Shown: in pieces, positions 9,858 through 59,648 of the stretch
How positions within the stretch are numbered: the first letter of the stretch is position 1
Layout: the number at the start of each line of letters is the position of its first letter
Assembly (NCBI GenBank): GCA_022705325.1
Contig: JAKJER010000006.1
Span: 169,097-233,096 of the forward strand
DNA length: 64,000 bases
Origin: Planctomycetota bacterium
GTDB lineage: Bacteria; Planctomycetota; Phycisphaerae; SM23-33
Direction: 5' to 3'
Notes under the pieces: generated by a model
What the model saw: only the letters and a program-made list of their open reading frames with translations
The model's database searches: none
What the model was told of the DNA's origin: nothing
Translations under genes and position numbers: made by a program

Positions 9858-9930
9858 CACGGCAGGGAGGACTTGAACCCCCAACCTGCGGTTTTGGAGA
9901 CCGCTGCTCTACCAATTGAGCTACTGCCGT
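9858..9930 (-). tRNA. tRNA-Trp (anticodon CCA)
   Basis: Reverse complement folds as a cloverleaf: ACGGCAG-TA-GCTC-AATTGGTA-GAGC-A-GCGGT-CTCCAAA-ACCGC-AGGTT-GGGGG-TTCAAGT-CCTCC-CTGCCGT-G. The anticodon loop is CUCCAAA, the discriminator is G, and CCA is not encoded. Confidence 0.9.
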
Positions 9931-11511: not shown

Positions 11512-11583
<72 letters not shown>

Positions 11584-11933: not shown

Positions 11934-14900
11934 ATGATGACAAGGTTGAAGGGCGTCGCGACGGTCGTATGGGTCCTCGCTCTGGCGTCGCCGGCGAGGG
12001 CGGGTGAAAGCTACCCCCTGCTGGGCAAGGTCCGTCCGCGGCATGCCAGGGAGATCGCCGCCTCGCCCTGGTCGGTCGGCGGGGAGACGCTCGACCGCGA
12101 CTACGCGATCTACGCCAACTACAAGGGCTACCTCGGGCCGCTGGGGGTCAAGAAGATCCGCCTCCAGGCCGGCTGGGCCAAGTGCGAGAAGAAGCCCGGC
12201 CGGTACGACTGGACCTGGCTGGACGAGGTGGTGGACGATGCCCTCGCCCAGGGAGTGGCGCCCTGGCTGGAGACGTCGTACGGCAATCCCATCTACGAAG
12301 GCGGCGGCGGGGCCGGCCTCGGCGGGGGCCTGCCCACCGGCGAGAAGGCCCTGGCCGCCTGGGACGCGTGGGTGGCGGCCCTGGTCGGGCGCTACCGTGA
12401 CCGCGTGTTGGAGTGGGAGATCTGGAACGAGCCCGATCTCAACAAGAAGAACACCGCCGCCGACTACGCCGCCTTCTACATCCGCACGGCCGAGATCATC
12501 CGCCGCGAGCAACCCAAGGCCAGGCTGCTGGCCCTGGCCATCGCGGGGATCGGCAACACGGCCTACGTCGAGAGCTTCCTCAAGCCGCTGGCCGATCAGA
12601 AGAAGCTGCACCTGGTGGACCAGATCACGGTGCACGGGTACCCGGAGAACCCCGACTCGTCGTACCCCACCCTGGCCAAGCTGCTGAAGGTGGTGCGGAA
12701 GTACGACCCGAAGATCCCGCTGCGCCAGGGCGAGAACGGGGCGCCGTCGACGAAGACCGTCGGAGCCCTGTCCAAGCTCAAGACGTCCGAGACCGTCCAG
12801 GCCAAGTGGGACCTGCGCCGGATGATGGGCGATCTCGGCCACGACATGGAGTCCAACGTCTTCACGCTGATGGAGCTTCGTTACCGCGGCGGGCGGATGG
12901 ACGGATGGAACACCAAGGGCATCCTCAAGGCCGCTCCGGACATGACCGTGGAGAGGCCCAAGCAGGCGTATTACGCCGTGCAGAACGTGACGGCGATCTT
13001 CGACAGCACGCTGGCCCGCGTCGCGGACTTCGCCTGCAAGGCCGACCTGGACCAGCCGCTGGCGGCCTACGCCTACAAGCGGGCCGACGGGGCGTGCGCC
13101 GCGACGCTCTGGCTGAGCGGCAGGGTCCCCGCCGACGCCAGCGACAAGACGCCCGCGAACCTCACGCTGACGGGCGTGAAGTTCACCGAGCCGCTCTGGG
13201 TGGACCTGCGGACGGGCGAGGTGCGGGCGATCCCGGCCGACCGCTGGAAGGCCGGCGAGGGCGGCTGCTCGTTCCAGGGCGTGCCCGTCTACGACTCGCC
13301 GGTCGTGATCGCCGAGAAGTCGCTCGTGCCGCTGGCGCCGGCGGCAGCGGCGCGTGGCACGGGCATCCTGCCCGTGCGTCCCACGGGCGTCCCGCCCGTG
13401 GGCCAGGGCCGGGACGGCCCTGCGACGCAGGGGCGAGACGCCCATGCCACGCTTGTGCTCACCAGGCCGGTCCGCATCGCCGGGCCCAAGCAGGACGACG
13501 CCGTCCGCCTGGCCATGGAGGACCTGGCCGGCGACGTCGAGGCCGCCCTCGGCCGAAAGGCCGAGGTGCTGCCCCCGCCGGAAGCGGCCAAGGCCGCCCG
13601 CGCCGACATAGTCGTCCGAATCGACGGCGGCCTGAACGAGCCGGGAAGCTACACCATCGAAGTCACCAAAGACGGCGTGACCATCCGCGGGGCCGACCGG
13701 CTGGGGGCGGTCTACGGCGTCTACCGCTTCAGCCGCGAGTTCCTCGGCGTCGACCCGCTGTGGTTCTGGAAAGGCCACGCCGCCCCCACCGACCGCCGCG
13801 ACCGCATCGTGCTGCCCGCGGGCACGATTCGCTCGCAGCGGCCGGCGTTCCGCTACCGCGGCTGGTTCATCAACGACGAGGACCTGCTGAGCGAGTGGCT
13901 GGCACCCAGCGGCAAGCGGTCGATCGATTACCCGTTCTATGGGCAGGTCATCTCGCTGGAGATCGCCGAGCGGATCTTCGAGGCCCTGCTGCGATGCGAG
14001 GGCAACCTGGTCATCCCCGCGTCGTTCGTCGACGTGATGAACGAGCCGGAAGCCGAACTGGTCCGCCGGGCGGTGCGCCGCGGGCTGTACGTGACTCAGC
14101 ACCACATCGAGCCGCTGGGCGTGAGCCACTTCGGCTTCGAGAACTTCTGGAAGCGCCAGGGCAGGACCGTGCGGATGTCCTACGCGAGCGACCCCCAGGC
14201 CGTCCGGGAGACGTGGACGGCCTTCGCCCGCCGCTGGGCGGAACTGGCGGGCGAGCAGGTCATCTGGCAGCTCGGCCTGCGCGGGCGGGGCGACATGCCG
14301 GTCTGGTCCAGCGACAAGTCCGTCTCGGCCGACAAGGCGGGCGAGATTATCTCCGCCGCCATCGCCGACCAGTGGCGGATCGTCCGCTCGGTGGACAAGC
14401 GCGACCAGCCGCCCACGACGGTAACGCTGTGGATGGAAGGCTCGCAGTTGATGGCCCGCGGCAGCCTGAAGCTGCCCACGGGCGTCACCGTCGTCTTCGC
14501 CGACGAGGGCTCCTCACAGACGCTCCAGGACGACTTCCGCCAGACGCCCCGCGCCGCCGACCACACGTATGGGCTGTACTACCATATCGCGTTCTGGTCT
14601 CGCGGCCCGCACCTGGTGGCCGGCACGCGGATCGGCAAGCTCGCCGACCAGCTCGGGCAGGTCATCGACAAGGGCGACACCCACTACGCCGTCTTCAACG
14701 TCTCGAACATCCGCGAGCACGTGCTGGGGGCAGCCGCCGGCATGGAGATCCTCCGCGACGGGCGCTCGTGGGACCGCAAGGGCTTCATCGGTCGCTGGCC
14801 GGCCCGGCAGGTCGCCCTGCCGGAGTGCCTGCTGGAGCTGCCCGGCGACCGGTTGTTGCAGGACGGCACGGCCTGGGTGCTGGCCCGCAAGCTGCTGGAC

Positions 14901-15284
14901 CAGCTCGCCAGGAAGAAGACCGCCTTCCCCAGGGATTACCTGCCCGCGGGCGCCGCCACTGCCGGGGACTTCGCCGCCGCCCTGGACCGTTGCATCCAGA
15001 AGCTCGACGCGCTGGTCAAGCAGGCGGACGCGGGCGCCGCCGACAGGTTCTACACTCACACCCAGCCGCTGATGCTGCGCCAGTACTACGCCTACCTGCG
15101 GGAACTGGCGATGGCGATGGAGGACCGCTCCCGCCTGGCTGCCGCCTGTAAGGAACTGGAGGCCCTGTTGGCGATCCGCAACGAGGCCCAGGCCGGCCGA
15201 TGGGCGAACTGGTATCGCGGAGACAAGAAGGAGAACCTGCCCGCCCTGCTGGAGCGAACGCGGACATTGACCAGCGACCATTGA
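11934..15284 (+). CDS. Secreted two-module glycoside hydrolase: N-terminal clan GH-A TIM-barrel domain (…WEIWNEPD…) plus a C-terminal domain of uncertain family (GH115/DUF4838-like?)
   Basis: Start trimmed to MMTRLKGVATVVWVLALASPARA (signal peptide) with AAGGA upstream. The NEP catalytic acid/base motif is typical of GH5/30/39. The second half (…FRYRGWFINDEDLL…NLVIPASF…) resembles large accessory GH domains. The ORF ends …LTSDH* inside a CATTGA heptamer array. Confidence 0.6.
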   Translation: MMTRLKGVATVVWVLALASPARAGESYPLLGKVRPRHAREIAASPWSVGGETLDRDYAIYANYKGYLGPLGVKKIRLQAGWAKCEKKPGRYDWTWLDEVVDDALAQGVAPWLETSYGNPIYEGGGGAGLGGGLPTGEKALAAWDAWVAALVGRYRDRVLEWEIWNEPDLNKKNTAADYAAFYIRTAEIIRREQPKARLLALAIAGIGNTAYVESFLKPLADQKKLHLVDQITVHGYPENPDSSYPTLAKLLKVVRKYDPKIPLRQGENGAPSTKTVGALSKLKTSETVQAKWDLRRMMGDLGHDMESNVFTLMELRYRGGRMDGWNTKGILKAAPDMTVERPKQAYYAVQNVTAIFDSTLARVADFACKADLDQPLAAYAYKRADGACAATLWLSGRVPADASDKTPANLTLTGVKFTEPLWVDLRTGEVRAIPADRWKAGEGGCSFQGVPVYDSPVVIAEKSLVPLAPAAAARGTGILPVRPTGVPPVGQGRDGPATQGRDAHATLVLTRPVRIAGPKQDDAVRLAMEDLAGDVEAALGRKAEVLPPPEAAKAARADIVVRIDGGLNEPGSYTIEVTKDGVTIRGADRLGAVYGVYRFSREFLGVDPLWFWKGHAAPTDRRDRIVLPAGTIRSQRPAFRYRGWFINDEDLLSEWLAPSGKRSIDYPFYGQVISLEIAERIFEALLRCEGNLVIPASFVDVMNEPEAELVRRAVRRGLYVTQHHIEPLGVSHFGFENFWKRQGRTVRMSYASDPQAVRETWTAFARRWAELAGEQVIWQLGLRGRGDMPVWSSDKSVSADKAGEIISAAIADQWRIVRSVDKRDQPPTTVTLWMEGSQLMARGSLKLPTGVTVVFADEGSSQTLQDDFRQTPRAADHTYGLYYHIAFWSRGPHLVAGTRIGKLADQLGQVIDKGDTHYAVFNVSNIREHVLGAAAGMEILRDGRSWDRKGFIGRWPARQVALPECLLELPGDRLLQDGTAWVLARKLLDQLARKKTAFPRDYLPAGAATAGDFAAALDRCIQKLDALVKQADAGAADRFYTHTQPLMLRQYYAYLRELAMAMEDRSRLAAACKELEALLAIRNEAQAGRWANWYRGDKKENLPALLERTRTLTSDH

Positions 15285-15312
15285 ACATTGACCGTTGATC
15301 ATTGACCATTGA
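15264..15312. repeat. Heptanucleotide tandem array, 7 x (N)CATTGA, straddling the stop codon of the upstream GH gene
   Basis: ACATTGA CCAGCGA CCATTGA ACATTGA CCGTTGA TCATTGA CCATTGA read directly from the sequence; the TGA stop at 15282-15284 is part of the third unit. Confidence 0.8.
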
Positions 15313-15344
15313 AGACTCGTCTTGGGGCGCCGGTTCACTCGTGT

Positions 15345-15414
15345 CTCGTCCCTCGTCCCTATTCCCTGTTCCCTAGTCCCTGTTCCCTCGTCCCTCATCC
15401 CTATTCGCCGTTCG
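15345..15414. repeat. Heptanucleotide tandem array, 10 x TNNTCCC-type units
   Basis: TCGTCCC TCGTCCC TATTCCC TGTTCCC TAGTCCC TGTTCCC TCGTCCC TCATCCC TATTCGC CGTTCGA, strictly 7-nt periodic, in the spacer between the GH gene and argB. Confidence 0.85.
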
Positions 15415-26227: not shown

Positions 26228-26275
26228 TCATCAGTGCCCTTGACGCCCTGTTCGGGCGGCGGGAAGATATCTCCC

Positions 26276-28597
26276 ATGAGAAGGCACATCCTTATCGTGC
26301 TCGTGTCTCTGGAACCCCTATTCGCTTCCGCACTTTCCGCCGCCCCGCCGGCGCAGTTTGCAGCCTGGGGCACGACCTGCGGGCCGCTCAAGCCCGTGCC
26401 CGCGGGCTGGAGACTCATCCAACCATCGCCCGCCCCCCCGCCGCCGCCGACCGAGCTCGACCGCAAGCGAGGCTTCCAGATCCTCAGTGACTCCGGATCG
26501 ACCAACGGCGAGCTGCGGCCGATCACCGCGCTTAACCTCTCAGCCGCGGTCGCCGAGTACGAGAGCGCCAGCTTCGTCCTCCACGCACTGCGGCCACTGG
26601 AGGGCGTGACGCTGCGGATCGTCGAACCGCCGGGCCCGCCAGGAGGGCCGGGCGTCGAGAAGACGGACCCGGCGTCGGCTGGCTGGCCGCTCTCGCCTGC
26701 GAACGTCGACATCCGCGTCGCCCGCGCCATACCCTTCCCGCTGGACGCCAAGGCCAAGACGTACCGCAAGGAAGACTGGGTGCTGGAGAAACTTCCGACG
26801 CTGACCCTCGCCGCCGGCGAGCGGGTGCGAGTCTGGCTGACCTTGCGGGCGGACGAGGTGGCGGAGCACCGCGGCAGATTGGAGGTCGCGGCCAACGACG
26901 CCGCGACGAGTCTGGAGGTGATCCTCCGCATCCTGCCGTTTTCCTTGCCCCCGCCGGCTGTCGAGTTCGCGATGTACTACCCGCGCCCGCCGGCCGACGA
27001 CGCCCAACTCGCCCGCGAGTTGATCGACATGCGCGAGCACGGCATGAACTCGATCCTGCCCGCGATTGAGGCGGTGATCAAGACACGCGACCGGAAGTTC
27101 AGCGCCGATGACATGCGGGCGACCCGCGAGCATGCCGAGCGGATGCTGCGGGCCGTGCGCGAGCACCTGGGGCCGCCGCGCTTTCCGCCCCTGGCGGCGG
27201 CCGGGCACCAGATCGCCTACTACTGGAACCAGCGGACCAACTGGTTCGAGTATTGGCCGCACACGCCGCAGATCGAGGCCGACCTGTTGGCTGCCTGCCG
27301 GCTGCTGGACGAGTTGGCCCGCGACCGCGGGGCCGCACGCACGCGGATCTACCTGGCCGACGAAGCCGCCGCTCACAACCTGCTCGACCAGGCTGCGCGG
27401 AGCTACGCCCTGGTCAAGCAGCGCCTGCCCGAGATGGAGACGTGGACCACGATCGGGGGCGGGCTGGCCATGGGCGTCGACGAGTTGGGGCCGCTGGACA
27501 AGTGTGTGGATTTCTTCGCGACCAACCGCTTCACGCCGCAGGTCGCCCGGCGGTTGGTAGGCCGTGGCAAGGCGTTCGGGGTGTATAACGGGGCGGGCCA
27601 CGCCCCCGAGCAGGCCCGCTTCTTCTTCGGCTTTTACGGGTGGAAGACGGCGGCAGCCCAGGTCTCGCAGTGGTGCTACCACTTCGGCGACTCGCCCTTC
27701 GCCGGCAACGGCCTGCGCAAGGAGGATGAGGGCTTCGTCTACCGCGCCGCCGACGGCCCTGTGCCAACGTTGATGTGGGAGGCTGTCCGCGAGGGCGTCG
27801 ACGACTTCCGCTACATGCAACTCCTCGCCCAATTCGTAGTCGCCGCCACGCTGCACGGCGGCGCCGCACCCCAGGCCGTCCATGACGCCCAGGCATGGTT
27901 GCGGGCGACGCTCGCAACGATCGACTGGAACGTCCAGCCACTTCGGTCCGAGGACCGCTCCGCCCCGCCGACCATGGCGCGCATGAACCAGTGGCGCCGC
28001 GAGGCGGTCGACCACATCCTCAAGCTCTCGCCGCAGGGCAAGCCTGCGCCCCTGCCGGAACTCGTCCGCTCGCCCTTCGACCACCCCTGGGCGTCGGCCG
28101 CCCAGCCGGTCAAGCTCGGCGAGGAACTCCTGCCCCAGGTGGGCTTCGAGACCGGCCTGGAACCTTGGCGCGTCGAGGCGTGGAACGGCAAGAGCAGTCA
28201 CCGCCTGGATGACCGCCAGCCGCACGCGGGCAAGCAGTCGGTCCGCATCGACATCCCTGCCGGCCAGCCCAGCACGGCCGTCACCGTCCTGGTCTTGCCG
28301 GGCTACGGTCCCAAGCCCTTCACCCGCACGCTGGCCGGCGGGAGCGGATACGAGCTTTCCGCCTGGGTCAATGCGCCCGCGAGACTCCCGCCGCAGCTCC
28401 GCGTTGCCCTCCCGGACGGCGCCACCGCAAAGACCCAGTCCGGTCAGGACGAGCCCGGCCCGGACGGTTGGCAGCGTCTGTGGCTGCGCGTCTGGCCCAA
28501 GGAGGACGCCAAGCCCAAGTACCTCGCCCTTTGGGTCCAGGGGCCGGGAACGGTGTGGGCGGACGACGTCAGCCTCCGGACGATCATTGACCATTGA
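26276..28597 (+). CDS. Secreted hypothetical glycoside-hydrolase-like protein (DUF4091/GH123-like?) with a C-terminal CBM4/9-like domain
   Basis: Signal peptide MRRHILIVLVSLEPLFASALSA. The central region (…IYLADEAAAH…) looks like a TIM barrel. The C-terminus (…WNGKSSHRLDD…YELSAWVNAP…VWADDVSL) resembles a carbohydrate-binding module. It ends …IIDH* inside a CATTGA heptamer array. Confidence 0.4.
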   Translation: MRRHILIVLVSLEPLFASALSAAPPAQFAAWGTTCGPLKPVPAGWRLIQPSPAPPPPPTELDRKRGFQILSDSGSTNGELRPITALNLSAAVAEYESASFVLHALRPLEGVTLRIVEPPGPPGGPGVEKTDPASAGWPLSPANVDIRVARAIPFPLDAKAKTYRKEDWVLEKLPTLTLAAGERVRVWLTLRADEVAEHRGRLEVAANDAATSLEVILRILPFSLPPPAVEFAMYYPRPPADDAQLARELIDMREHGMNSILPAIEAVIKTRDRKFSADDMRATREHAERMLRAVREHLGPPRFPPLAAAGHQIAYYWNQRTNWFEYWPHTPQIEADLLAACRLLDELARDRGAARTRIYLADEAAAHNLLDQAARSYALVKQRLPEMETWTTIGGGLAMGVDELGPLDKCVDFFATNRFTPQVARRLVGRGKAFGVYNGAGHAPEQARFFFGFYGWKTAAAQVSQWCYHFGDSPFAGNGLRKEDEGFVYRAADGPVPTLMWEAVREGVDDFRYMQLLAQFVVAATLHGGAAPQAVHDAQAWLRATLATIDWNVQPLRSEDRSAPPTMARMNQWRREAVDHILKLSPQGKPAPLPELVRSPFDHPWASAAQPVKLGEELLPQVGFETGLEPWRVEAWNGKSSHRLDDRQPHAGKQSVRIDIPAGQPSTAVTVLVLPGYGPKPFTRTLAGGSGYELSAWVNAPARLPPQLRVALPDGATAKTQSGQDEPGPDGWQRLWLRVWPKEDAKPKYLALWVQGPGTVWADDVSLRTIIDH

Positions 28598-28618
28598 CTA
28601 TTGGCCATTGAACGTTCC
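28584..28618. repeat. Heptanucleotide array (TCATTGA CCATTGA CTATTGG CCATTGA ACGTTCC) overlapping the stop codon of the upstream gene
   Basis: Direct reading; the TGA stop (28595-28597) is embedded in the second unit. Confidence 0.7.
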
Positions 28619-28715
28619 TCTGTTGGACCTTCTCCTCTTCTCTGCCGCGGTTGATCCATCTTGACGCCGCGCGGGCCGGCGGGGAACATGTCGGCGACAC
28701 CCGAGGTATACGCCT

Positions 28716-29894: not shown

Positions 29895-31538
29895 ATGACG
29901 CCTGTTCGCTTCTCAGGGCTGGGGTATTTTCGTTTCGTGCTCGTGTGCGCCTGCCTGCCGGCGTTGGCGGCCGCCCTGCGGCCGGCCCGGGCGGCGGACT
30001 GGCCCCAGTGGGGCGGCGGCAATGCGCGAAACGCCTGCTCGGGCGAGAAGAACCTGCCCGAGTCGTTCGAGCCGGGCGACAAGGACCCCAAGAGCGGCGA
30101 GATCCGCGCCGACACCACCCGCAACGTCAAGTGGTCCGCCCGCCTGGGGGGCGGGTGCTACGGCAACACCACCGTCGCCAACGGGCGCGTCTTCGCCGGC
30201 ACCGACGACCAGACGCTTCGCGAGGACGAGCGCTTCGGCCGGCCCAACACCGCCGGCATGGTCAAGTGCTTCGACGAGAAGACGGGCAAGCTGCTGTGGC
30301 AGTTGCCCATCGCCCCGATCAAGACCCCCAAGGAATGGCACTACGGCTTCCAGAAGCTCGGGGTCTGCTCCTCCCCCACCGTCGACGGCGACCGCGTCTA
30401 CATCGTCTCCCACACCAACGACGTGCTCTGTCTGGACGTCCGCGGCCAGGCCAACGGCAACGACGGGCCCTTCACCGACGAGGCCAAGCTCATGGTCAAG
30501 GCCGACCAGAAGCCGGTTGAGCTCCAGCCCACCGACGGCGACGTGATCTGGCGCTTCAGCGTCAACGAGGAGCTGAAGGTCATCCCCCACGACGTGGCGA
30601 GCTGCTCGGTGGTCGTCCATGGCGACTTCGTCTACCTCTCTACGTCCAACGGGGTCAACCACGCCCACGACAAGCCTCTGTCGCCCGACGCGCCGGCGTT
30701 CATCGCGCTGAACAAGCACACGGGCAAGCTGGCGGCCGTCGAGGACGAGGGGATCAGCAAGCGGATGTTCCACACGCAGTGGTCCTCGCCCTGCCTGGCG
30801 ACGGTGGGCGGGCGGACGCTGGTGGTGGTCGGCGCGACCGACGGCTTCTGCTACGCCTTCGAGCCGCTGGACAAGATGCCCGACGCGCCCGCCAAGCTCA
30901 AGAAGGTCTGGCAGTACGACTGCAACCCCCCCGAGTACCGCCTCCGCGACGGCAAGCGCATCAACTACCTCGACGGCGACAAGCGCAAGAAGACCAGCCC
31001 CAACAAGAACGACGGCACCTACCTGGGCCCCAGCGAGGTCATCGCCACGCCCGCCTTCTCCAACGGGCGCGTCTACGTGGCCATCGGGCAGGACCCCCTC
31101 CACGGCCGGGGAAGGGGCCTGCTCCACTGCATCGACGCCTCCAAGACCGGCGACATCACCAAGACCGGCTGCGTGTGGACCTACGACGGCCTGGACCGCA
31201 CCATCGCCAACGCCGTCGTCGCCGGCGGACTGGTCTACATCCCCGACATCGCCGGAAGACTCCACTGCGTCGACGCCGACACGGGCAAACCGCACTGGGT
31301 GCACGAGATGAAGGCCGAGACCTGGGGCAGCCCCATGGTCGCAGACGGCAAGGTCTACCAGGGCACGCAGAAGGCGCTGCATGTGCTCGCCGCGGGCAAG
31401 GAGGCCAAGGAACTGGCCCGCATCAATCTCGGCTCGCCCATCTACAGCACCCCCATCGCGGCCAACGGCACGCTCTATTTCGCTTCGCAGAAGTACCTGT
31501 GGGCGGTGGCGAAGCAGCCGGTAGCCTCCAGCCGGTAG
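29895..31538 (+). CDS. Secreted PQQ-like beta-propeller repeat protein
   Basis: Signal peptide, then DWPQWGGGNARN… and repeated …G.VY.G..DG.L.A.D..TGK..W… blades. It ends PVASSR* within a GTAGCCT heptamer array. Confidence 0.6.
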   Translation: MTPVRFSGLGYFRFVLVCACLPALAAALRPARAADWPQWGGGNARNACSGEKNLPESFEPGDKDPKSGEIRADTTRNVKWSARLGGGCYGNTTVANGRVFAGTDDQTLREDERFGRPNTAGMVKCFDEKTGKLLWQLPIAPIKTPKEWHYGFQKLGVCSSPTVDGDRVYIVSHTNDVLCLDVRGQANGNDGPFTDEAKLMVKADQKPVELQPTDGDVIWRFSVNEELKVIPHDVASCSVVVHGDFVYLSTSNGVNHAHDKPLSPDAPAFIALNKHTGKLAAVEDEGISKRMFHTQWSSPCLATVGGRTLVVVGATDGFCYAFEPLDKMPDAPAKLKKVWQYDCNPPEYRLRDGKRINYLDGDKRKKTSPNKNDGTYLGPSEVIATPAFSNGRVYVAIGQDPLHGRGRGLLHCIDASKTGDITKTGCVWTYDGLDRTIANAVVAGGLVYIPDIAGRLHCVDADTGKPHWVHEMKAETWGSPMVADGKVYQGTQKALHVLAAGKEAKELARINLGSPIYSTPIAANGTLYFASQKYLWAVAKQPVASSR

Positions 31539-31717
31539 CCTGTGGTCTGTAGCCTGCCGGCAGGCATAAGGTCGGTGGGGTCGCAGGAAGGGCGCAACCC
31601 TTGCCAGCCGCTCAATCCCTTTCTCCGCCGCCATGAAGGCGGTGGGATCAAACAACGAGGCGATTCTCGGACAACCCTTCGGCTACAGGCTACTGACTAC
31701 AGGCTACTGGCTACCGG
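31521..31717. repeat. About 200-bp element with inverted heptamer-array arms (5 x GTAGCCT-type at 31521-31555; 5 x GGCTACN at 31681-31717) around a core carrying the CCTGCCGGCAGG palindrome (31553-31564); MITE-like/REP-like
   Basis: The left arm CCGGTAGCCTCCAGCCGGTAGCCTGTGGTCTGTAGCC is approximately the reverse complement of the right arm GGCTACAGGCTACTGACTACAGGCTACTGGCTACCGG. Both arms are 7-nt periodic. Confidence 0.6.
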
Positions 31718-31765
31718 ATTGTCTCTGGCGTATACTACCAGCATGCCGCCTGACAGGGAGAGAAC

Positions 31766-33778
31766 ATGACCGCAGAATCGCTCCCGGCCCTGCCGCCGCC
31801 GATCGTCGTGTCCGGCCAGGAAAGCCTCGACAGCCTGCTGAGCAAGGAGTGGCTGATCGCGAACCGGCTCGGCGCGTACGCCTCCTCCACCGCGGCCGGG
31901 TGCAACGCCCGTCGCTACCACGCGCTGCTGGTGGCCGCCACCGCCCCGCCCGTCGGGCGGATGGTCATGCTGTCGACCGTCATGGAGCAGCTCACCTGCG
32001 GGCAGACCACCTACCACCTGGCCACCAACGAGTTCTCCGGCGCCTTCTCGCCCCTGGGCGCGGTGCACCTGGTCGAGTACCGCGACGAGGTCGCCCCCAC
32101 GTTCATCTACCGCGCCGGGCCGCTCACGCTGACCAAGGAAATCCTGCTGGCCGACGCCGCCAACGCCGTGGCCGTCCGCTACACCCTCCGCGGCGGCCAG
32201 GCGAGCCTGTCCCTGTGGCCCTTCACGCCCCTGCGAGACTTCCACCACCTCCGCAAGGTCCACCAGCCGCACCAGATGATGTTCGAGCTGACCGAGGGCG
32301 GACTGGTCGTCCAGGACCGCATCCGCAACTCGCCCGCCCTGCACCTGACCAGCAAGGAAGCGAAGTTCGAAGGCCGCCCGCAGTGGTGGTACCAGTTCCA
32401 TTACCGCATCGACGCCAGCCGGGGACAGGACAGCTTCGAAGACCTCTACACGCCCGGGTTCTTCCGCATCGAACTGGCCGACGGGCAGTCCTGCCAGCTC
32501 AACGCCTCGCTCGCCGAGCCCGTGCCGGTGGGCTTCGCGACCACGCTGGACCTCCGCCGCCGCCGGCTGGAGGAACTGGCCGCCTCGGTCGGCGCCGACG
32601 CCGACGAGACCACCCGCCGCCTGGCCGTCGCGACCGACGCCTTCGTGGTCCAGCGGAGCTTCCCCAACGCGCCGTCGTCGGCCACCATCGTCGCGGGCTA
32701 TCCCTGGTTCGCCGACTGGGGGCGCGACGCCTTCATCGCCCTGCCGGGGCTCCTGCTGTGCACCGGGCGATTCGACCTCGCCCGCCAGGTCTTCCGAACC
32801 TTCACGCTGCATCTCGAAGGCGGGATGATCCCCAACCGCTTCGACGACTACTCCTTCTCCGCCCACTACAACTCCATCGACGCCTCGCTGTGGTTCATCC
32901 TGGCGGCCGACGCCTACGTCCGCGCCAGCGGCGACACCGCCTTCTGGGACGACCTGCTGGGCCCCACCGCCCACGCCATCCTCCAGGCCTACCAGAACGG
33001 CACGCTCTTCGACATCCACGCCGACGCCGACGGCCTGCTCATGGGCGGATCGCCCAAGACCCAGCTCACCTGGATGGACGCCGCCCTGGGCGACGAAGTC
33101 GTCACGCCCCGCCACGGCAAGGCCGTCGAGATCAACGCCCTGTGGTACGCCGCTCACCGCATCCTGGCCGAGCGGACGCGGGGCCACGACGCCGGCGCCG
33201 CCAACGCCCTGGACCACCAGGCGGACCTCATCCAGACCGCCTTCCGCGCCGCCTTCTGGAACCCGGCCTTCCGCTGCCTGTACGACTGCATCAGCGAGAC
33301 CGGGCCCGACGACGCCTTCCGCCCCAACCAGATCTACGCCGTCGCCCTGCCCTACAGCCCGCTGTCGGACGAGCAGCAGGCGGCGATCGTCCGCGCCGTC
33401 GCGCAGCGCCTGCTTACGCCCTGCGGTCTGCGCACCCTCGCGCCGGAGGACCGCCGCTACAAACGCCGCTACGGCGGCTCGTGCGAAAACCGGGACCGCG
33501 CCTACCACCAGGGCACCGTCTGGTCCCACCTCATGGGGGCCTTCATCGAGGCTTACCTCAAGGTCGAGACCGGCCCCGAGGCCGTCGAGAACGCCCGCCA
33601 GATGCTTGTCGCCTTCGCCGGCCACCTCCACGAGGCCGGGCTGGGACAGGTCAGCGAGATCTTCGACGGCGACCCGCCCCACCATCCCGCCGGCTGCTTC
33701 GCCCAGGCCTGGTCGGTGGCCGAGGTCCTGCGGGCCAAGCTCCTGGTCCGCCAGGCGCAGCGGAACTTGAAGACATGA
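31766..33778 (+). CDS. Glycogen debranching enzyme (amylo-alpha-1,6-glucosidase, GH133/GDE_C type)
   Basis: N-terminus …EWLIANRLGAYASSTAAGCNARRYHALLVAA… is the conserved GDE N-terminal domain. There is a C-terminal (alpha/alpha)6 barrel. 670 aa. Confidence 0.8.
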   Translation: MTAESLPALPPPIVVSGQESLDSLLSKEWLIANRLGAYASSTAAGCNARRYHALLVAATAPPVGRMVMLSTVMEQLTCGQTTYHLATNEFSGAFSPLGAVHLVEYRDEVAPTFIYRAGPLTLTKEILLADAANAVAVRYTLRGGQASLSLWPFTPLRDFHHLRKVHQPHQMMFELTEGGLVVQDRIRNSPALHLTSKEAKFEGRPQWWYQFHYRIDASRGQDSFEDLYTPGFFRIELADGQSCQLNASLAEPVPVGFATTLDLRRRRLEELAASVGADADETTRRLAVATDAFVVQRSFPNAPSSATIVAGYPWFADWGRDAFIALPGLLLCTGRFDLARQVFRTFTLHLEGGMIPNRFDDYSFSAHYNSIDASLWFILAADAYVRASGDTAFWDDLLGPTAHAILQAYQNGTLFDIHADADGLLMGGSPKTQLTWMDAALGDEVVTPRHGKAVEINALWYAAHRILAERTRGHDAGAANALDHQADLIQTAFRAAFWNPAFRCLYDCISETGPDDAFRPNQIYAVALPYSPLSDEQQAAIVRAVAQRLLTPCGLRTLAPEDRRYKRRYGGSCENRDRAYHQGTVWSHLMGAFIEAYLKVETGPEAVENARQMLVAFAGHLHEAGLGQVSEIFDGDPPHHPAGCFAQAWSVAEVLRAKLLVRQAQRNLKT

Positions 33779-36054: not shown

Positions 36055-36128
36055 GGGCCGTTAGCTCAGTTGGCTAGAGCGCCTGCTCGACACGCAGGAG
36101 GTCACTTGTTCAAGTCAAGTACGGCCCA
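36055..36128 (+). tRNA. tRNA-Val (anticodon GAC), with an unusual C at position 33
   Basis: GGGCCGT-TA-GCTC-AGTTGGCTA-GAGC-G-CCTGC-TCGACAC-GCAGG-AGGTC-ACTTG-TTCAAGT-CAAGT-ACGGCCC-A. All four arms pair. Anticodon-loop positions 34-36 are GAC. Confidence 0.65.
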
Positions 36129-44100: not shown

Positions 44101-44295
44101 GATGTATTCCTCCAGGCGGTCCTTGGTCTCCTCTCCGTGGAGCCAGAACAGCGGCCCGGTCAGCCGCCTGGCCTCCTGGGGCAGCTCGCGGAAGAGCTGC
44201 TCCATGCGGGCCATGTCGCCCTGGGGAAGCTGCTGGGCGAAGGCGAGCGAAGAAAAGAAGAAGAGGACGAGGGCAAGACAATGCGACGTTTTCAT
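41158..44295 (-). CDS. Large secreted glycoside hydrolase, putatively alpha-L-rhamnosidase-like (GH106-like), with C-terminal galactose-binding-like domains
   Basis: Signal peptide MKTSHCLALVLFFFSSLAFAQQ. It is about 1045 aa with no close family motif I can name with certainty. The rhamnosidase suggestion comes from the adjacent RhaT symporter and overall architecture. Confidence 0.45.
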   Translation of the reverse strand: MKTSHCLALVLFFFSSLAFAQQLPQGDMARMEQLFRELPQEARRLTGPLFWLHGEETKDRLEEYIAKTAEAGNGSFTAESRPHRDWLGEGWYRDLGICLEAARKNNMEMWIFDEKWWPSQMIGGLVPAQYATKVLVAEAVDVEGPKAYEADGFVGERYVAAVAGKVVDGGAIDGESLVDLAGHIRDGALRWQAPAGAWKVIKFTHKQGPGLGQGNKPSIDGASQDCVDYFIQTVYQPHWDRFKDDFGKTIPGFFYDEPETRGDWGTELNKVLAEWKVDWKKAYVAHKFKLAGEDDAAAKFQYVDAFAEAWGRTMYGTMSRWCQEHKVKSMGHFMEHGYLYLHPQFCAGDMMRLEKYSDMGGIDLVCRQMYPGQRPRDIYQTPKLGSSITHAFGKADDITMCEIFGGYNQELTYSQMKWLTDQMQVRGVNFLIQHSFNPKAPYDRDYPPYFYNSGFEPRFPLHRAWTDYTSRLALLLSGGRHVCPVAILFSGNLKRVGRMTTPEDITSSLQDVLFDSDWLPMEAFASDTCTIADKAVRLHQERYRVVVLPGVEVIPHEVLARLKAFFDAGGIVIACGELPTRSATVGKTAADIAALRAAVWGETPQVGTKACKTSPAGGRAYLLAEKPAPADFAAALTGDAALHPTLEVLQGETNNWLHVLHRVKSGRDVFLVCNQNHEGPARSFRFRVTAAGTPEIWDAMRNEITSVPFERKGDAVELELTLEANESVLIVFREQARPLPARLPAQLQAARPPIEVVRQPTPESMIVPSGPPEQAPASGGRRLSVKSGSWIWHKSGEDKAAVRYFRGRLDLPEGRPVKSATAAITCDNLAVLHVNGKKAGKTDDELNAGWRNVQQVDLTGLLKAGPNVLAVRGENFDSQTANPCGMIAVIRVEFERGQPLVVCTDASWKSCDKEVPGWTAPEFDDSSWTAAKVLAKYGGGPWGDFEGKGGGARRLTRSPAVSDPFVGTVELPAEVDLKTARVYLEMDELPDTAAAVRVNGQFAGGCIGLPARVNVTAQLRAGKNAVVILPQAPKAARLVVVPGRP

Positions 44296-44316
44296 AGTCT
44301 CTCCTTGAAGCAATTC

Positions 44317-44418
44317 TCGATTGTCGATTTGCGATTGTCGATTGACCCACCCGTCTTGGCAGGCCCTGCTCAAATCGACAATCGAAAACCTGCCGGCAGG
44401 CAGGTCGACAATCGTCAA
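44317..44418. repeat. REP-like element: heptamer array 4 x TCGATTG-type, inverted copies (AATCGAC AATCGAA … TCGACAA TCGTCAA) and the 23-nt core AACCTGCCGGCAGGCAGGTCGAC (44387-44409)
   Basis: CGATTGTCGATTTG (44316-44329) is the exact reverse complement of CAAATCGACAATCG (44371-44384). The core is identical to 58063-58085. It sits between the URO-D-family stop and the GH106-like start. Confidence 0.75.
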
Positions 44419-45581
44419 TACCATCCGTACTCGTACGCCGCGTCGTACATCGCGACGATGTTCTCAGGCGGCACGCCGGCCTGGATGTTGTGGACGTTGT
44501 TGAACACGTACCCGCCGCCGGGCTTGAACAGCTCGATGTTGCGCCGGACGTGCTCGCGGACCTGGTCCGGCGTGGCCCTCGGCAGGACGCGCTGCGCGTC
44601 GATCGCCCCGCCCCAGAACGTCAGGCGCTCGCCGAACTCCCGCTTGAGCCGCCCCGGGTCCATGTCGGCGGCGCTGATCTGCACCGGGTTGAGGATGTCG
44701 ACGCCGTTGTCGACCAGGTCGCCGATGTACTCGGTGCAGTTGCCGCACGTGTGGTACCAGATCTTCGCCTTCGTCCGCGAGCGGATGTACTGCACGAGTC
44801 GTTTGTGGCGCGGCTTCACGAGCTGACGGTAGAGCGCCGGGCGGAACAGGGGCCCCTGCTGCCCGGCCAGGTCGTCGCCGATCATGATCACGTCCACCAC
44901 GTCGCCGACCTCGTCCAGGAACACCCGGAACCAGTCCATCCAGAACTTGAGCGTCTGGTCCAGCACCGCCTGGCAGAACTCCGGCTCGGTCATCAGGTCC
45001 ACGTACCACTGTTCCAGGCCGCGCATGTACCAGCAGACCTCGTACACCACGCCGCAGATGCCGCTGACCACGGCGTAGGGCGTGTGGTTCTTCAGTTCCA
45101 GGGCCCGCTCGCGCAGGCCCACGAACCGCCCCGGGTCGTCGCCCCTGGGGAACGGGTAGGCCTTCACGTCCTCGATGGTCGCGTTGGCCAGCGGGTGGTG
45201 CGTGATGTCCATGTACAGCCCGTCCTCGGCCGGCATGGACCAGCGGACGCCGAACTCGTCGACCAGGTCGAACCACCGCCTCCCATCGTGCTCGCCCTCG
45301 ACGATGCCGCCCTTCCAGTCGCCCGCCGCCCCGGCCGCGATGTACCGCGTGTCCACGCGGAATCGCTGGAGGAGTTCCTCGCTGGGCTTGGCGAGTTGCT
45401 GGACGGCGTCCATGATCTCGACCGGGCCGTTCATCCCCAGGTGCCGGATCAGCTCGCGGTAGGCGTCGCGATGGATGCCTGTCTGGTTGCCGCCCAGGTC
45501 GATGGGCACGCGGTCCGGCTGCTTGTGGTCCAGGGCGGTCAGGACGCGCTGGCGGGGTGTCATGGTCTCGGTGCGGCTCAT
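44415..45581 (-). CDS. Uroporphyrinogen-decarboxylase (URO-D)/MtaA-CmuA-family protein
   Basis: 388 aa; …TPRQRVLTALDHKQPDRVPIDLGG… plus a TIM-barrel-length body typical of PF01208 members. GGAG RBS. Its start overlaps the rhaT stop by 4 nt. Confidence 0.6.
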   Translation of the reverse strand: MSRTETMTPRQRVLTALDHKQPDRVPIDLGGNQTGIHRDAYRELIRHLGMNGPVEIMDAVQQLAKPSEELLQRFRVDTRYIAAGAAGDWKGGIVEGEHDGRRWFDLVDEFGVRWSMPAEDGLYMDITHHPLANATIEDVKAYPFPRGDDPGRFVGLRERALELKNHTPYAVVSGICGVVYEVCWYMRGLEQWYVDLMTEPEFCQAVLDQTLKFWMDWFRVFLDEVGDVVDVIMIGDDLAGQQGPLFRPALYRQLVKPRHKRLVQYIRSRTKAKIWYHTCGNCTEYIGDLVDNGVDILNPVQISAADMDPGRLKREFGERLTFWGGAIDAQRVLPRATPDQVREHVRRNIELFKPGGGYVFNNVHNIQAGVPPENIVAMYDAAYEYGWY

Positions 45582-54806: not shown

Positions 54807-56030
54807 ATGTGGATGTTGTGGACAACGCTGAAGATTGCCCTGGCCTCGCTGGCGAGCAACAAGCTGCGCAGCATCCTGACGATGCTGGGGGTGATCATCG
54901 GCGTGGGAGCGGTCATCGCCATGCTCTCGCTGGGCTCGGCCTTCGGGCAGTTCATCGAGAGCCAGATCTCCTCGCTGGGCACCAACGTGCTGTTCGTGCG
55001 GGCCACGCACCAGAAGCACGGGCCGCCGGTGGCCCTGATCCAGACGATGACCGTCGAGGACGCCGAGGCCGTTCTCGCCCTGGACGGCGTGCGAGCGGTC
55101 AGCCCGATGGCCATGAACGGCGGGACCATCAAGGCGGGCAACAAGTCCAGCGGATCGGCCGCCATCGTCGGCATCGCCCCCTCGCTGTTCGACATCCAGA
55201 ACATCCAGATCGCCCGCGGGCGGATCTTCACCGACGCCGAGGTCCGCCGCCAGGCCCGCGTGGGCGTGATCGGGCCCAAGCTGGCCGACGACCTCTTCGG
55301 CGACCAGGACCCCATCGGGCGCGAACTCCGCATCGAGACCGTGCACTTCCGCGTGATCGGCCTGACCACCCGCATCGGCGATCAGGGAGGCTACAACCCC
55401 GACGACCGCATCCTCATCCCCTACACCGTGGCCATGCGCCAACTCACCCCGCGACGAGACTACCTCGCCGTCGTCGCCGTCGCGGTGGCCGAGAAGGACC
55501 AGATCGACCCGGTCAAGGAGAGGATGACCTCCCTGCTCCGCCAGCGCCACCGCCTCCGTCATGACGAAGCCGACGACTTCTCCATCGCCGACCTCGCCCA
55601 GATCCTCGCCACCTTCCAGAAGGTCAGCCTCGGGCTCACCCTCTTCCTGGGCATGGTGGCGGCCATCAGCCTCATCGTCGGCGGAATCGGGATCATGAAC
55701 ATCATGCTGGCCACGGTGGCCGAGCGGACGCGGGAGATCGGCATCCGCAAGGCCCTGGGGGCCAAGGACCGCGACATCCTCCAGCAGTTCCTCATCGAGG
55801 CCCTGGTGATCACGCTGGGCGGCGGGCTGATCGGCCTGGGGCTGGGTTGGCTGCTCATGGTCGGCGGCGGCAAGGTGGTGGCCAACTGGCTCGCGCTGGA
55901 CACGGCCCTCCAGTGGTGGGCCGTCGCCATGGCGATCGCCATCTCCACCGTCGTCGGGCTGGTCAGCGGGCTCTACCCCGCCTTCCGCGCCAGCCGGCTG
56001 GACCCGATCGTCGCGCTGCGATACGAGTAA
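54807..56030 (+). CDS. ABC-transporter permease of the FtsX/MacB/LolCE family, with no ATPase gene adjacent
   Basis: N-terminal TM, about 220-aa periplasmic domain, then the FtsX 3-TM bundle (…ISLIVGGIGIMNIMLATVAERTREIGIRKALGA…). Confidence 0.8.
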   Translation: MWMLWTTLKIALASLASNKLRSILTMLGVIIGVGAVIAMLSLGSAFGQFIESQISSLGTNVLFVRATHQKHGPPVALIQTMTVEDAEAVLALDGVRAVSPMAMNGGTIKAGNKSSGSAAIVGIAPSLFDIQNIQIARGRIFTDAEVRRQARVGVIGPKLADDLFGDQDPIGRELRIETVHFRVIGLTTRIGDQGGYNPDDRILIPYTVAMRQLTPRRDYLAVVAVAVAEKDQIDPVKERMTSLLRQRHRLRHDEADDFSIADLAQILATFQKVSLGLTLFLGMVAAISLIVGGIGIMNIMLATVAERTREIGIRKALGAKDRDILQQFLIEALVITLGGGLIGLGLGWLLMVGGGKVVANWLALDTALQWWAVAMAIAISTVVGLVSGLYPAFRASRLDPIVALRYE

Positions 56031-56105
56031 TAGTGGTTCGTGCACAGTGGATGGCCAAGCGCGTCCTGTTCTCTTCCCTATCCACTATCCACTGTCCACT
56101 ATTCC
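56029..56105. repeat. Inverted heptamer arrays (AATAGTGG…CACAGTGG vs TATCCAC TATCCAC TGTCCAC TATT) between the permease gene and nrdJ
   Basis: AATAGTGGTTCGTGCACAGTGGATGG is approximately the reverse complement of CTATCCACTATCCACTGTCCACTATT. Units are 7-nt periodic and contain CACTAT / ATAGTG, which resemble NrdR half-sites. Confidence 0.55.
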
Positions 56106-56140
56106 GCGCGTTAGAATGTCGGAGAGCAAAGCGTCACCCA

Positions 56141-58036
56141 ATGCAGACATTCGAGCCCATTTTGTCCCCCAATGCCCTGCGGGCGCTGGAGGCGCGGTAT
56201 TTGCGGAAGGACATCTCCGGGCGGCTCCTCGAGACGCCGGGCGGAATGTTCCAGCGCGTGGCCCGGGCGGTGGCCGCTGCCGAGCCGGCCTACGGGGCCT
56301 CGCCGGCTGAAGTCGAGCAAACCGAGCGCGACTTCTACGAGATGATGGCCCGCACGGAGTTCCTGCCCAACAGCCCCACGCTGATGAACGCGGGACGCCG
56401 GCTCGGAATGCTCAGCGCGTGCTTCGTGCTGCCTATCGACGACTCGATCGACGCCATCTTCGAGTCGGTCAAGCACACCGCGCTGATCCAGAAGGCCGGC
56501 GGGGGCACGGGCTTCTCCTTCGACCGCCTCCGCCCCACGGGCGATTACGTGGCCTCCTCGGGCGGCACGACCAGCGGGCCCATCAGCTTCTGGCGGGTCT
56601 TTTGCGAGGCCACCCGCGCCATCCAGCAGGGGGCGTTCCGGCGCGGGGCCAACATGGGCATGATGTCCGTCGACCGCCCCGACATTCTCAAATTCATCTC
56701 GGCCAAGGAAAGGCCGGGCGAGTTCGAGAACTTCAACATCTCCGTCAAGGTCACCGACGCGTTCATGTGCGATCTGCGAAGCGACGGCGACCGTCCGCAC
56801 GTGGTCACCAACCCTCACACGGGCGAGCGGTATACCCTCCCGGCCGGGCTGGACGTGGCCACCTACTCGATCCACGACCTGGCGCCCCACGACGGCCGCC
56901 CCGCCCCGCCCTACGCCGTCACCAGCCGCCAGGTCTGGGACCGCATCGTCCGGGGCGCGTGGGCCACCGGCGAGCCCGGGCTGTGCTTCATCGACCGCGT
57001 CAACGCCGACAACCCCACCCCCCAAGTCGGGCGGATCGAGGCCACCAACCCCTGCGGCGAGCAGCCCCTGCTGGATTACGAGGCCTGCAACCTCGGCTCG
57101 GTGGACGTCTCCAAGTTCGTCCGCGACGGACGGCTCGACGAGGCCGCCTTCTCCCGCACCGTCCGTCTGGGCGTCCGGTTCCTCGACGACGTCATCGACG
57201 TCAACAACTACGTCATCCCAGCCGTGACCGACATCTGCCGCCGCAACCGCAAGATCGGGCTGGGCGTCATGGGTCTGGCCGACGCCTTGATGGAACTGGA
57301 GATCCCCTACGACAGCGAGGAAGGCCTGGCCTTCGGGCGGCGAGTGGCGGAGTTGTTCACGCGCGAGGCCTTCGCCGCCGACGAGGAACTGGCCCGCCGG
57401 CGCGGGTGCTTTGCCAACTGGCCCGGCAGCGTGTGGGATGTCCGCCATCACCGCCCCATGCGCAACGCAGCCGTCACCACCGTGGCCCCCACCGGCACGC
57501 TGAGCCTCATCGCCGGCTGCTCCGGCGGGATCGAGCCCGTCTACGCCCTGGCCTTCTACCGCCACGTGCTGGGCGGGCAGGAGATGCTCGACCTCTGCGG
57601 GCCCTTCCTGCGCTACGCCCGACGGCACGGCATCTGGAATGACGATCTGGCCCGCCGCCTGGCCGGGCGGACAAGCCTGGGCTGCATCGAGGGCCTCGAT
57701 GCCCGCACCCGCGAGATCTTCGTCACCGCCCACGACGTGGCCCCCGCCTGGCACGTTCGAATGCAGGCCGTCTTCCAGGAGCACGTCGACGGGGCCATCT
57801 CCAAGACCATCAACCTCCCCGCCGGCGCCACCCTCAAGGACGTGGAAGACGTCTACCAGCTCGCCTTCGACCTCCGCTGCAAAGGCGTGACCGTCTACCG
57901 CGACGGCTGCCGGACGGGCCAGCCCATGACCACCGAGAAGCTCGACGCCCTCTGCCCACGCTGCCAGGCGCTGCTCGAAGAGATCGACGGCGCCTGCTCG
58001 CGCTGCCCCTCGTGCGGGGCGCCCCTGTGTTCCTGA
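56141..58036 (+). CDS. nrdJ: Adenosylcobalamin-dependent (class II) ribonucleotide reductase with a C-terminal zinc ribbon
   Basis: Active-site …ATNPCGEQPL…, …SNCNLGS-like CNLGSVD…, and a C-terminal CPRCQ…CSRCPSCG. 631 aa. Confidence 0.85.
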   Translation: MQTFEPILSPNALRALEARYLRKDISGRLLETPGGMFQRVARAVAAAEPAYGASPAEVEQTERDFYEMMARTEFLPNSPTLMNAGRRLGMLSACFVLPIDDSIDAIFESVKHTALIQKAGGGTGFSFDRLRPTGDYVASSGGTTSGPISFWRVFCEATRAIQQGAFRRGANMGMMSVDRPDILKFISAKERPGEFENFNISVKVTDAFMCDLRSDGDRPHVVTNPHTGERYTLPAGLDVATYSIHDLAPHDGRPAPPYAVTSRQVWDRIVRGAWATGEPGLCFIDRVNADNPTPQVGRIEATNPCGEQPLLDYEACNLGSVDVSKFVRDGRLDEAAFSRTVRLGVRFLDDVIDVNNYVIPAVTDICRRNRKIGLGVMGLADALMELEIPYDSEEGLAFGRRVAELFTREAFAADEELARRRGCFANWPGSVWDVRHHRPMRNAAVTTVAPTGTLSLIAGCSGGIEPVYALAFYRHVLGGQEMLDLCGPFLRYARRHGIWNDDLARRLAGRTSLGCIEGLDARTREIFVTAHDVAPAWHVRMQAVFQEHVDGAISKTINLPAGATLKDVEDVYQLAFDLRCKGVTVYRDGCRTGQPMTTEKLDALCPRCQALLEEIDGACSRCPSCGAPLCS

Positions 58037-59631: not shown

Positions 59632-59648
59632 GGAAGCGATGGAACTCC

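Follow-up and report, generated by a model that had tools for sequence, protein, structure and literature searches.

A stem-loop of about 200 nt was found between two genes of the plus strand in a 64,000-nt stretch of the genome of a Planctomycetota bacterium (Phycisphaerae; GenBank assembly GCA_022705325.1, contig JAKJER010000006.1, positions 169,097 to 233,096), herein referred to as the window. The arms of this stem-loop are arrays of tandem 7-nt units (heptamers) in opposite orientations. Comparison with two sister species showed that the common ancestor already had a short run of heptamers at the upstream stop codon, followed by a plain hairpin, and that translation of the upstream gene in the window extends by seven codons, to a TAG codon taken from the fourth unit of the array. 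The stem-loop is probably a simple-sequence hairpin that formed in place and provides the transcript of the upstream gene with its 3'-end structure. A preliminary description of the locus had proposed a miniature inverted-repeat transposable element (MITE) or, alternatively, the fully developed form of a family of gene 3'-end elements. The former proposal was not borne out, and the latter agrees with the results presented below.

Heptamer arrays and stem-loop between the PQQ and GDE genes

The upstream gene (29895–31538, plus strand) encodes a BamB/PQQ-like beta-propeller protein of 547 aa (Pfam PQQ_2, E = 1.4e-23), and the downstream gene (31766–33778, plus strand) encodes a glycogen debranching enzyme of 670 aa with the GDE_N and GDE_C domains (Pfam GDE_C, E = 5.3e-117). 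These genes, referred to as PQQ and GDE, are separated by a spacer of 227 nt, in which no gene was called in any assembly. The G+C content of the window is 68%.

The left array, which forms the left arm of the hairpin, occupies positions 31515–31556 of the plus strand. It was delimited by Tandem Repeats Finder, by the inverted repeat, and by in-register homology with the sister species, designated L160 and L161. From position 31515, its six units are CAGCCGG, TAGCCTC, CAGCCGG, TAGCCTG, TGGTCTG, and TAGCCTG. Tandem Repeats Finder also detected a super-period of 14 nt, CAGCCGGTAGCCTC being present twice at 31515–31541 with 100% matches over the first 27 nt; two degenerate units and one more TAGCCTG follow. 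The last seven codons of PQQ (QPVASSR) and its stop codon are encoded by this array, and the TAG stop (31536–31538) is the start of the fourth heptamer, inside the left arm. In the preliminary description, the left arm was given as five GTAGCCT-type units beginning at 31521 and overlapping the stop codon. The stop codon does lie inside the array, but only three exact copies of GTAGCCT are present, the 14-nt period describes the array better, and the array begins at 31515.

The right array (31681–31717, plus strand) is the right arm of the hairpin and the reverse complement of the left array, with the units GGCTACA, GGCTACT, GACTACA, GGCTACT, and GGCTACC followed by GG. Its description as five GGCTACN units was confirmed by Tandem Repeats Finder, which reported a period of 7 with 4.9 copies and 81% matches at 31681–31714; a period of 14, with 2.3 copies and 94% matches, is an alternative fit. 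By the repeat search, the inverted arms (31518–31554 and 31681–31717) are 37 nt long, 78% complementary, and 126 nt apart. The best complementarity over 37 nt is 29 positions, whereas 300 dinucleotide shuffles averaged 20.8 and never exceeded 26, so the arms are indeed imperfect reverse complements of about 37 nt, as had been described. Folding of the 217-nt stretch gave –110.7 kcal/mol for the plus strand, compared with –82.9 ± 4.7 kcal/mol for shuffled sequences (z = –5.9), and z = –5.3 for the minus strand.

The arms enclose a lineage-specific core of about 125 nt (31557–31680, plus strand), which contains three small internal hairpins in the minimum-energy fold. One of them is the structure-prone segment of the preliminary description, CCGCCGCC-ATGAA-GGCGGTGG (31625–31645), which is paired in this fold. 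The palindrome CCTGCCGGCAGG (31553–31564; 12 nt, or 14 nt with the flanking G...C) had been placed inside the core as a sequence shared with other elements. It does recur, as described below, but it is located at the junction of arm and core and overlaps the last left unit.

Downstream of the right array, a conserved block (31718–31765, plus strand; ~90% identical to L160) precedes GDE. It contains a putative –10 box, TATACT (31731–31736), and a ribosome-binding site, GGGAGAG (31756–31762), and would act as a promoter. No known RNA family was detected at the locus: at the gathering score, Rfam 15 matched only three tRNAs in the window, and at a permissive threshold the best match in 31400–31900 had E = 0.98, far under the threshold. 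The three tRNA genes are located at 9858–9930, 11512–11583 (minus strand), and 36055–36128 (plus strand).

The same locus in two sister species

Searching by the downstream debranching enzyme yielded 80 loci with identity of at most 64%; in these loci, the upstream gene order was not kept and no array was found at the corresponding place. The sister loci were found through the 90%-identity cluster of the PQQ protein, as two variants with 87–88% protein identity. Their DNA is ~89% identical to the window, and the gene order FitA-PQQ-GDE is retained in L160.

The PQQ proteins of both sister species stop at ...WAVAK, seven residues before the end of the window protein. The ancestral stop site, immediately after ...GCGAAG, is TAG or TAA in the sisters and reads CAG in the window (31515–31517). 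In L160, GCGAAG is followed by TAG CATT CAGCTTC CAGCATT CAGCTTT CAGCTCA AAGCCCACGG AAGGTCTA CCGTGGGCTTT, and in L161 by TAA CTAC CAGCTTT CGGTTCA AAGCCCACGG AAGGCTTT CCGTGGGC. Thus, both sisters have an array and then a compact, GC-rich terminator-type hairpin of 11–15 bp, AAAGCCCACGG-loop-CCGTGGGCTTT. Aligned without gaps from the common anchor, the arrays of the window and L160 are identical at 24 of 49 bases (p = 0.004) and have equal numbers of units; the array of L161 is 14 nt shorter than both. Units 1 and 3, as well as units 2 and 4, are near-identical inside each species and different across species, which indicates concerted evolution by slippage. In L160, unit 1 (TAGCATT, compared with CAGCATT in unit 3) opens with the stop codon itself, and in the window unit 1 is the same as unit 3 (CAGCCGG).

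Homology with L160 is also observed at the other end of the stem-loop. The outer unit of the right arm, CTGGCTACCGG, followed by 13 nt and TATACT, matches CTGGCGAGCGG followed by 13 nt and TATACT in L160, and the sequence from this unit to the GDE start codon is orthologous, with ~90% identity. Since the left array and the outer right unit both have orthologs in L160, both ends of the element are present in what would be its empty site. New in the window lineage are the TAGCCTG unit in both arms, four extra units of the right arm, and the core. In the minimum-energy fold of L160 (z = –3.1), the array (GCUUCCAGCA) pairs with the CTGGCGAGC block around the 15-bp hairpin, so a weak outer helix existed beforehand. 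When aligned, the palindrome of the window falls on the left stem of the sister hairpin (TAGCCTG CCGGCAG in the window and AAGCCCA CGGAAGG in L160 and L161) and may therefore have arisen in place.

Two possible sources of the core were rejected, namely the sister spacer and an internal tandem duplication. Local alignment of the core with L160 is at the level of shuffled sequences (250 of 500 shuffles reach its score), an internal direct repeat of 19 nt is marginal (11 of 500 shuffles; score p ~0.02), and a multiple alignment was unconvincing.

The following series of events would account for these differences. Replication slippage would have expanded and homogenized the array, converting unit 1 to CAGCCGG and thereby TAG to CAG; loss of the stop codon would in turn have added the seven codons up to the TAG in the fourth unit. 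Next, an inverted copy with the derived unit TAGCCTG would have been built on the promoter-proximal side, probably via template switching between the arms of the earlier weak long-range helix. The resulting stem-loop (about –110 kcal/mol) would end or protect the upstream transcript in place of the small ancestral hairpin. Its position just upstream of the conserved block with TATACT and the ribosome-binding site suggests a role as a terminator, as a 3'-end stabilizer or exonuclease barrier, or as an insulator that keeps two unrelated transcription units apart.

Heptamer arrays and palindromes in the window and in other genomes

Period-7 arrays were found at eight places in the window, compared with 0.1 in shuffled sequences, and no arrays were found at periods 8–12. 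At least seven heptamer-array loci are present in the 64 kb. Seven loci are intergenic, and at six of these the preceding gene is co-directional and its stop codon lies at the start of the array or within it, in accordance with the proposed family of 3'-end elements. Each locus has its own heptamer unit, with CATTGAC listed for two of them.

The complete layout of stop codon, left arm, spacer, right arm, and next gene was found at two further loci, again with co-directional genes and a left arm covering the stop codon. The locus at 44313–44420 (minus strand; genes identified by Pfam) contains inverted ATTGTCG and CGACAAT arrays with fold z = –4.7. Here, the stop codon of a URO-D-like gene (44415–44417) lies inside the CGACAAT array, and the inverse ATTGTCG array finishes 18 nt before the start of a GH106 gene (44295). 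Comparison of 44270–44450 with contig L142, from a strain with 96.9% overall identity, showed both arms and the palindrome unchanged. Four substitutions were observed there, two in the hairpin loop and two near the ribosome-binding site, too few for a test of constraint. At 56024–56108 (plus strand), the arms are 36 nt long and 72% complementary; the TAA codon of a MacB/FtsX gene (56028–56030) is in the left arm, and the right arm, a CTATCCA array, lies 33 nt before a ribonucleotide reductase gene (start 56141). The genes flanking each of the three hairpins in the window are functionally unrelated.

The remaining arrays of the window are on the plus strand. A CATTGAC array (15269–15315) overlaps the stop codon (15282–15284) of a GH115 gene and is adjoined by a C-rich TCCCTNN array (15337–15406), which is not its inverted partner; the pair (15269–15406) has fold z = +0.4. 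The TCCCTNN array is 70 nt long with ~8–10 units, is G-poor and predicted to be unstructured, and resembles a Rho-utilization site in composition. Another CATTGAC array (28581–28613) overlaps the stop codon (28595–28597) of the open reading frame (ORF) 26234–28597. This array covers the stop codon at the end of a 2.4-kb segment (26228–28625) that is absent from L160 (1325–1368); the segment sits between the genes for DNA polymerase III delta' and an ion channel, and its 787-aa ORF has no Pfam match. A GATTGCG array (58028–58066) begins at the ribonucleotide reductase stop codon and is followed by CCTGCCGGCAGGCAGG (whole locus 58028–58080; fold z = –2.2). A TCGTTGT array (59595–59625) begins at the stop codon of ORF 58145–59596. 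Fold z is ~0 for 15262–15411, 28578–28715, and 59590–59660; thus, half of the arrays in the window are without structure.

Related loci were represented by 1.28 Mb of sequence from the 80 debranching-enzyme loci, from Phycisphaerae-type metagenome-assembled genomes (MAGs), with crude gene calls (GC3 heuristic). This sample contains 45 arrays of period 7, compared with 18, 9, 6, 3, and 6 arrays of periods 5, 6, 8, 9, and 10, respectively. In the window and the relatives together, an inverted partner within 250 nt was found for 19 of 85 arrays, compared with 2 for the reversed and 1 for the complemented control. Such inverted pairs include GTCATTN in L057 (32 nt, 84%), AAATGCA in L072 (57 nt, 82%), AAATCCG in L077 (48 nt, 90%), and GGTAGGC in L078 (31 nt, 84%). 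Intergenic positions were called for 32 of 41 arrays. The other nine were called as coding, and at least two of these calls (window 44313 and 56070) are artifacts of over-long ORF starts. Proximity to a stop codon was rejected as a general rule, since outside the window 11 cases were observed in high-GC loci with 7.1 expected, which is not significant.

An ATTGNCN or TTGAC-like unit, in the sense of the upstream gene, is common to four arrays of the window (15269–15315, 28581–28613, 44313–44347, and 58028–58066) and is likewise present in L057 (9253), L080 (2660), and L015 (7883). The choice of unit may therefore be non-random, and this unit resembles a –35 hexamer. In L053, a Latescibacterota MAG with six detected arrays, a CCACTGA array of 15 units (12707–12819) and its reverse complement (15126–15168), 2.3 kb apart, flank coding sequence. 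Heptamer arrays with inverted partners are thus not restricted to Planctomycetota. A perfect (GGCTACT)16 array was found at 1502–1614 of L162, a 73.6-kb region of the Klebsiella pneumoniae IncFIB plasmid NZ_CP110637.1; it lies in an unannotated stretch, and its unit matches the right arm, evidently without relationship.

The palindrome CCTGCCGGCAGG has exact copies at 44389 and 58065 in addition to 31553. It thus occurs three times in the window, always next to arrays, and once in the 1.28 Mb of relatives. At 44389–44404, removal of exactly CCTGCCGGCAGGCAGG (16 nt) restores an unbroken CGACAAT array, with 18 of 21 matches at the junction. Similarly, removal of exactly the 20-nt CCTGCCTGCCGGCAGGCAGG restores the period-7 phase at L092 195–214, L092 1649–1668, and L131 2221–2240, both being other Phycisphaerae-like contigs. 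Because 16 and 20 are not multiples of 7, the palindromes inside arrays look like insertions. At 31553, no deletion restores the phase of the array (best 13 of 21). A metagenome scan was performed with the palindrome 21-mer CCTGCCGGCAGGCAGGTCGAC, which was present in 74 contigs (L086–L159) with G+C contents of 29–73%, from clearly different organisms. It is mostly part of a 20-nt perfect palindrome, often centered in other nested inverted repeats (L093, L126), and conserved flanks are common to L097, L105, L123, L124, L132, L133, L151, and L156.

The arrays, their inverted partners, and the palindromes that lie in phase within arrays of at least three Phycisphaerae genomes could all be footprints of one DNA-level process active in Planctomycetota, although we consider this doubtful. 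Such a process (a tiny hairpin element, for instance, or hairpin-templated copying) may build and remodel long intergenic stem-loops at gene ends, and may be analogous to, yet independent of, the short tandemly repeated repetitive (STRR) and small dispersed repeat (SDR) sequences of cyanobacteria.

Explanations for the stem-loop and known repeat systems

A mobile element, either a MITE or a REPIN-like non-autonomous element inserted between PQQ and GDE, is the least probable explanation of those considered. The inverted 37-nt arms around a non-coding core, the absence of a counterpart for the core and the inner right arm in the sisters, the recurring palindrome, and a 5-nt direct repeat, TGGCG, at one outer boundary pair would all suit such an element. 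Further copies, which the MITE proposal called for, did not appear: by blastn, the core and the full unit matched only themselves in the window and the relatives, where the 14-nt palindrome alone was shared beyond its home locus. Among plasmids only the unrelated (GGCTACT)16 array was found, among phages there was no match to the unit, and an exact 22-mer of the core was absent from IMG/VR. TGGCG, the only candidate for a target-site duplication, occurs at 1 of 360 boundary pairs with ~0.35 expected by chance; in L160 over 100 nt separate the two positions, with CTCGCG at the right one, so it is not a single duplicated site. The arms themselves are tandem heptamers whose ends are orthologous in the "empty" sister sites, which leaves no insertion boundaries, and the other inverted-array hairpins are built of unrelated heptamers. 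An integron attC site (RYYYAAC ... GTTRRRY with cassette context) was rejected because the outer ends are CCGGTAGCC ... GGCTACCGG and because, in the sisters, the genes on either side are core genes in synteny. Readings as CRISPR or as a small ORF were dropped on sequence grounds.

Also improbable is an origin from local arrays for the arms alone, with the core arriving separately in an earlier short hairpin, either as one small insertion or as nested insertions of tiny hairpins. The phase-restoring deletions at 44389, at two sites of L092, and in L131 indicate that small hairpin insertions into arrays do occur in this lineage, and the core is composed of three small hairpins, does not align with the sister spacer, and contains the marginal 19-nt repeat. 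However, no segment of the core beyond 15 nt in length was found a second time, the palindrome at 31553 has no phase-restoring deletion, and its alignment with the left stem of the ancestral hairpin allows for evolution in place. Very improbable is a regulatory array acting at the DNA level, in which protein-binding sites or promoter-like hexamers would tune GDE expression by repeat number and the right arm is proposed to overlap the –35 position of the putative GDE promoter. The right arm does end 13 nt upstream of TATACT, with TGGCTA 17 nt upstream of it, several arrays of the lineage share the –35-like unit, and promoters are known to be tuned by simple-sequence repeats (PMC4679880). Against this, each locus has its own heptamer, so that no single binding protein fits, TAGCCTG is not –35-like, the copy number does not vary among five assemblies, and the left arm lies in and after the coding region.

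More serious, though still unlikely, is the same in-place origin with no function, the stem-loop being a neutral by-product of slippage and template switching that is tolerated in an unconstrained spacer; the ancestral terminator function may have been lost or may be held by the small core hairpins. The mismatches in the arms are in line with this explanation. In seven inverted pairs, G-U and A-C mismatches on the sense strand are equally frequent (10 and 10), transversions account for 23 of 43 arm mismatches, and nothing in these counts points to RNA selection rather than DNA-level origin with neutral decay. At the PQQ-GDE locus, the counts are 2 and 2, and the strand test is uninformative. 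An origin at the DNA level, through inverted duplication or quasi-palindrome template switching, is enough to account for the complementary arms without RNA selection. The unstructured half of the window arrays, the occurrence of arrays in all intergenic orientations, and the fast sequence turnover between sister species likewise speak for this explanation. On the other hand, the hairpin is found exactly at the site of the well-formed terminator-type hairpin of the sisters, between unrelated genes that presumably need separation, and inverted partners are ten-fold commoner than in controls, although a DNA-level mechanism alone could explain the latter.

A simple-sequence hairpin with a role at the 3' end of the PQQ transcript remains our preferred explanation, and several results besides the mismatch counts weigh against it. 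The consensus terminator scan gave no match at the hairpin because there is no U-tract; of the features of intrinsic terminators, the strong stem and the position after a gene are present, and the tail of the sister hairpin is only CTTT. The core and the inner right arm could not be aligned to the sister spacer, and the core may have been inserted or replaced internally. Five independent assemblies of the window strain are identical, so ongoing slippage was not directly seen. Enrichment at stop codons is weak outside the window, and 4 of 31 classifiable arrays of the relatives are in divergent intergenic regions, so that the arrays, taken as a class, are not purely 3'-end devices. The search for further copies in this genome covered 64 kb.

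In every feature tested, the unit agrees with heptanucleotide simple-sequence repeats, and it fails the tested features of MITEs, repetitive extragenic palindromes (REPs) or REPINs, and attC sites. Both arms are composed of head-to-tail 7-nt units (Tandem Repeats Finder period 7 or 14), period 7 is over-represented and mainly intergenic, close relatives differ at one locus in the number and sequence of the units, and arrays of the same unit in opposite orientations lie close together, as in the inverted pairs of Xanthomonas. Heptanucleotides are the commonest long simple-sequence repeats in most bacterial genomes, for which polymerase slippage was proposed (Mrazek, 2007, as cited in PMC4679880). 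Xanthomonas genomes contain ~185 GGGAATC arrays each, and in 70–75 cases two of them converge and could form a stem-loop; close species have arrays between the same genes that differ in length and sequence, and their function is unknown (Rehm et al., 2015, PMC4692102). Like these arrays and the GGGGAYT arrays of Nostoc, the arrays described here are intergenic tandem 7-nt units, typically ~4, and as in Xanthomonas, opposite-orientation arrays stand side by side as potential stem-loops or cruciforms. Unlike in Xanthomonas, where one G-rich unit dominates and a G-quadruplex was proposed, the units here are locus-specific and without G-tracts, the arrays of the window often begin at a stop codon, one of them encodes the last seven residues and the stop codon, and the phylum is Planctomycetota. 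In Beggiatoaceae, intergenic TAACTGA arrays have 2–6 copies of a stop-containing unit, and some overlap the end of the upstream ORF (MacGregor, 2015, PMC4679880). The window arrays share this overlap, whereas the Beggiatoaceae arrays have a single unit, for the most part immediately precede a start codon in forward orientation, and include one inverted example in 170 sets.

The cyanobacterial STRR heptamers reportedly carry embedded SDR4–6 sequences of 21–27 nt in Nostoc. The in-phase 16- and 20-nt palindromes would be comparable to these tiny hairpins in tandem intergenic heptamers. STRRs are, however, said to use a few units genome-wide, whereas the units here are locus-specific, and the palindrome here is shorter than the reported SDRs and a perfect (CCTG)n/(CAGG)n sequence, whose hint of mobility consists of the phase-restoring deletions. 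REPs are imperfect palindromes of 20–40 nt with tens to hundreds of copies, linked to the RAYT transposase. Their family definition is a conserved imperfect palindrome in many copies with an unpaired GTAG or CGTC tag (PMC3733652). The stem-loop resembles REPs, BIMEs, and REPINs in being extragenic, at a gene 3' end, and an inverted doublet forming a long hairpin, and at 31549–31564 GTAG precedes a GC-rich palindrome. Unlike in REPs, the arms consist of heptamers in tandem that belong to this locus only, and GTAG is heptamer-derived. A REP or REPIN identity was rejected because GTAG precedes the palindrome only at 31549, AAAA and CGAA being found at 44389 and 58065, and because the copy number of the palindrome is low. 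MITEs share the size of ~200 bp, the inverted ends, and the non-coding core, and differ in having copies, target-site duplications, and ends that are not orthologous to the empty site. Intrinsic terminators and 3'-stabilizing stem-loops share the location after a stop codon and upstream of a promoter-like block, and the stem-loop takes the place of the AAAGCCCACGG...CCGTGGGCTTT hairpin of the sisters; unlike intrinsic terminators, it has an imperfect stem of ~37 bp, a structured interior of 125 nt, and no U-tract. Three differences from the precedents thus stand out: locus-specific units, the start of arrays at stop codons in this genome, and the co-option of an array as coding sequence and stop codon.

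With these observations, Phycisphaerae join Xanthomonas and cyanobacteria as bacteria in which heptanucleotide arrays with inverted partners are known between genes. L161, L160, and the window form a clean series from a region with a small terminator-type hairpin to a 200-nt stem-loop. For genome annotation, long inverted repeats with a non-coding core need to be checked for further copies or for empty sites before they are labeled as MITEs, and heptamer arrays are able to rewrite the C-terminus and the stop codon of a conserved gene silently. Insertion of the palindrome in phase offers a modest starting point for the study of tiny elements that are mobile or templated. Should the hairpins prove to terminate or stabilize transcripts, they would aid the definition of transcription units in a phylum with poorly described terminators.

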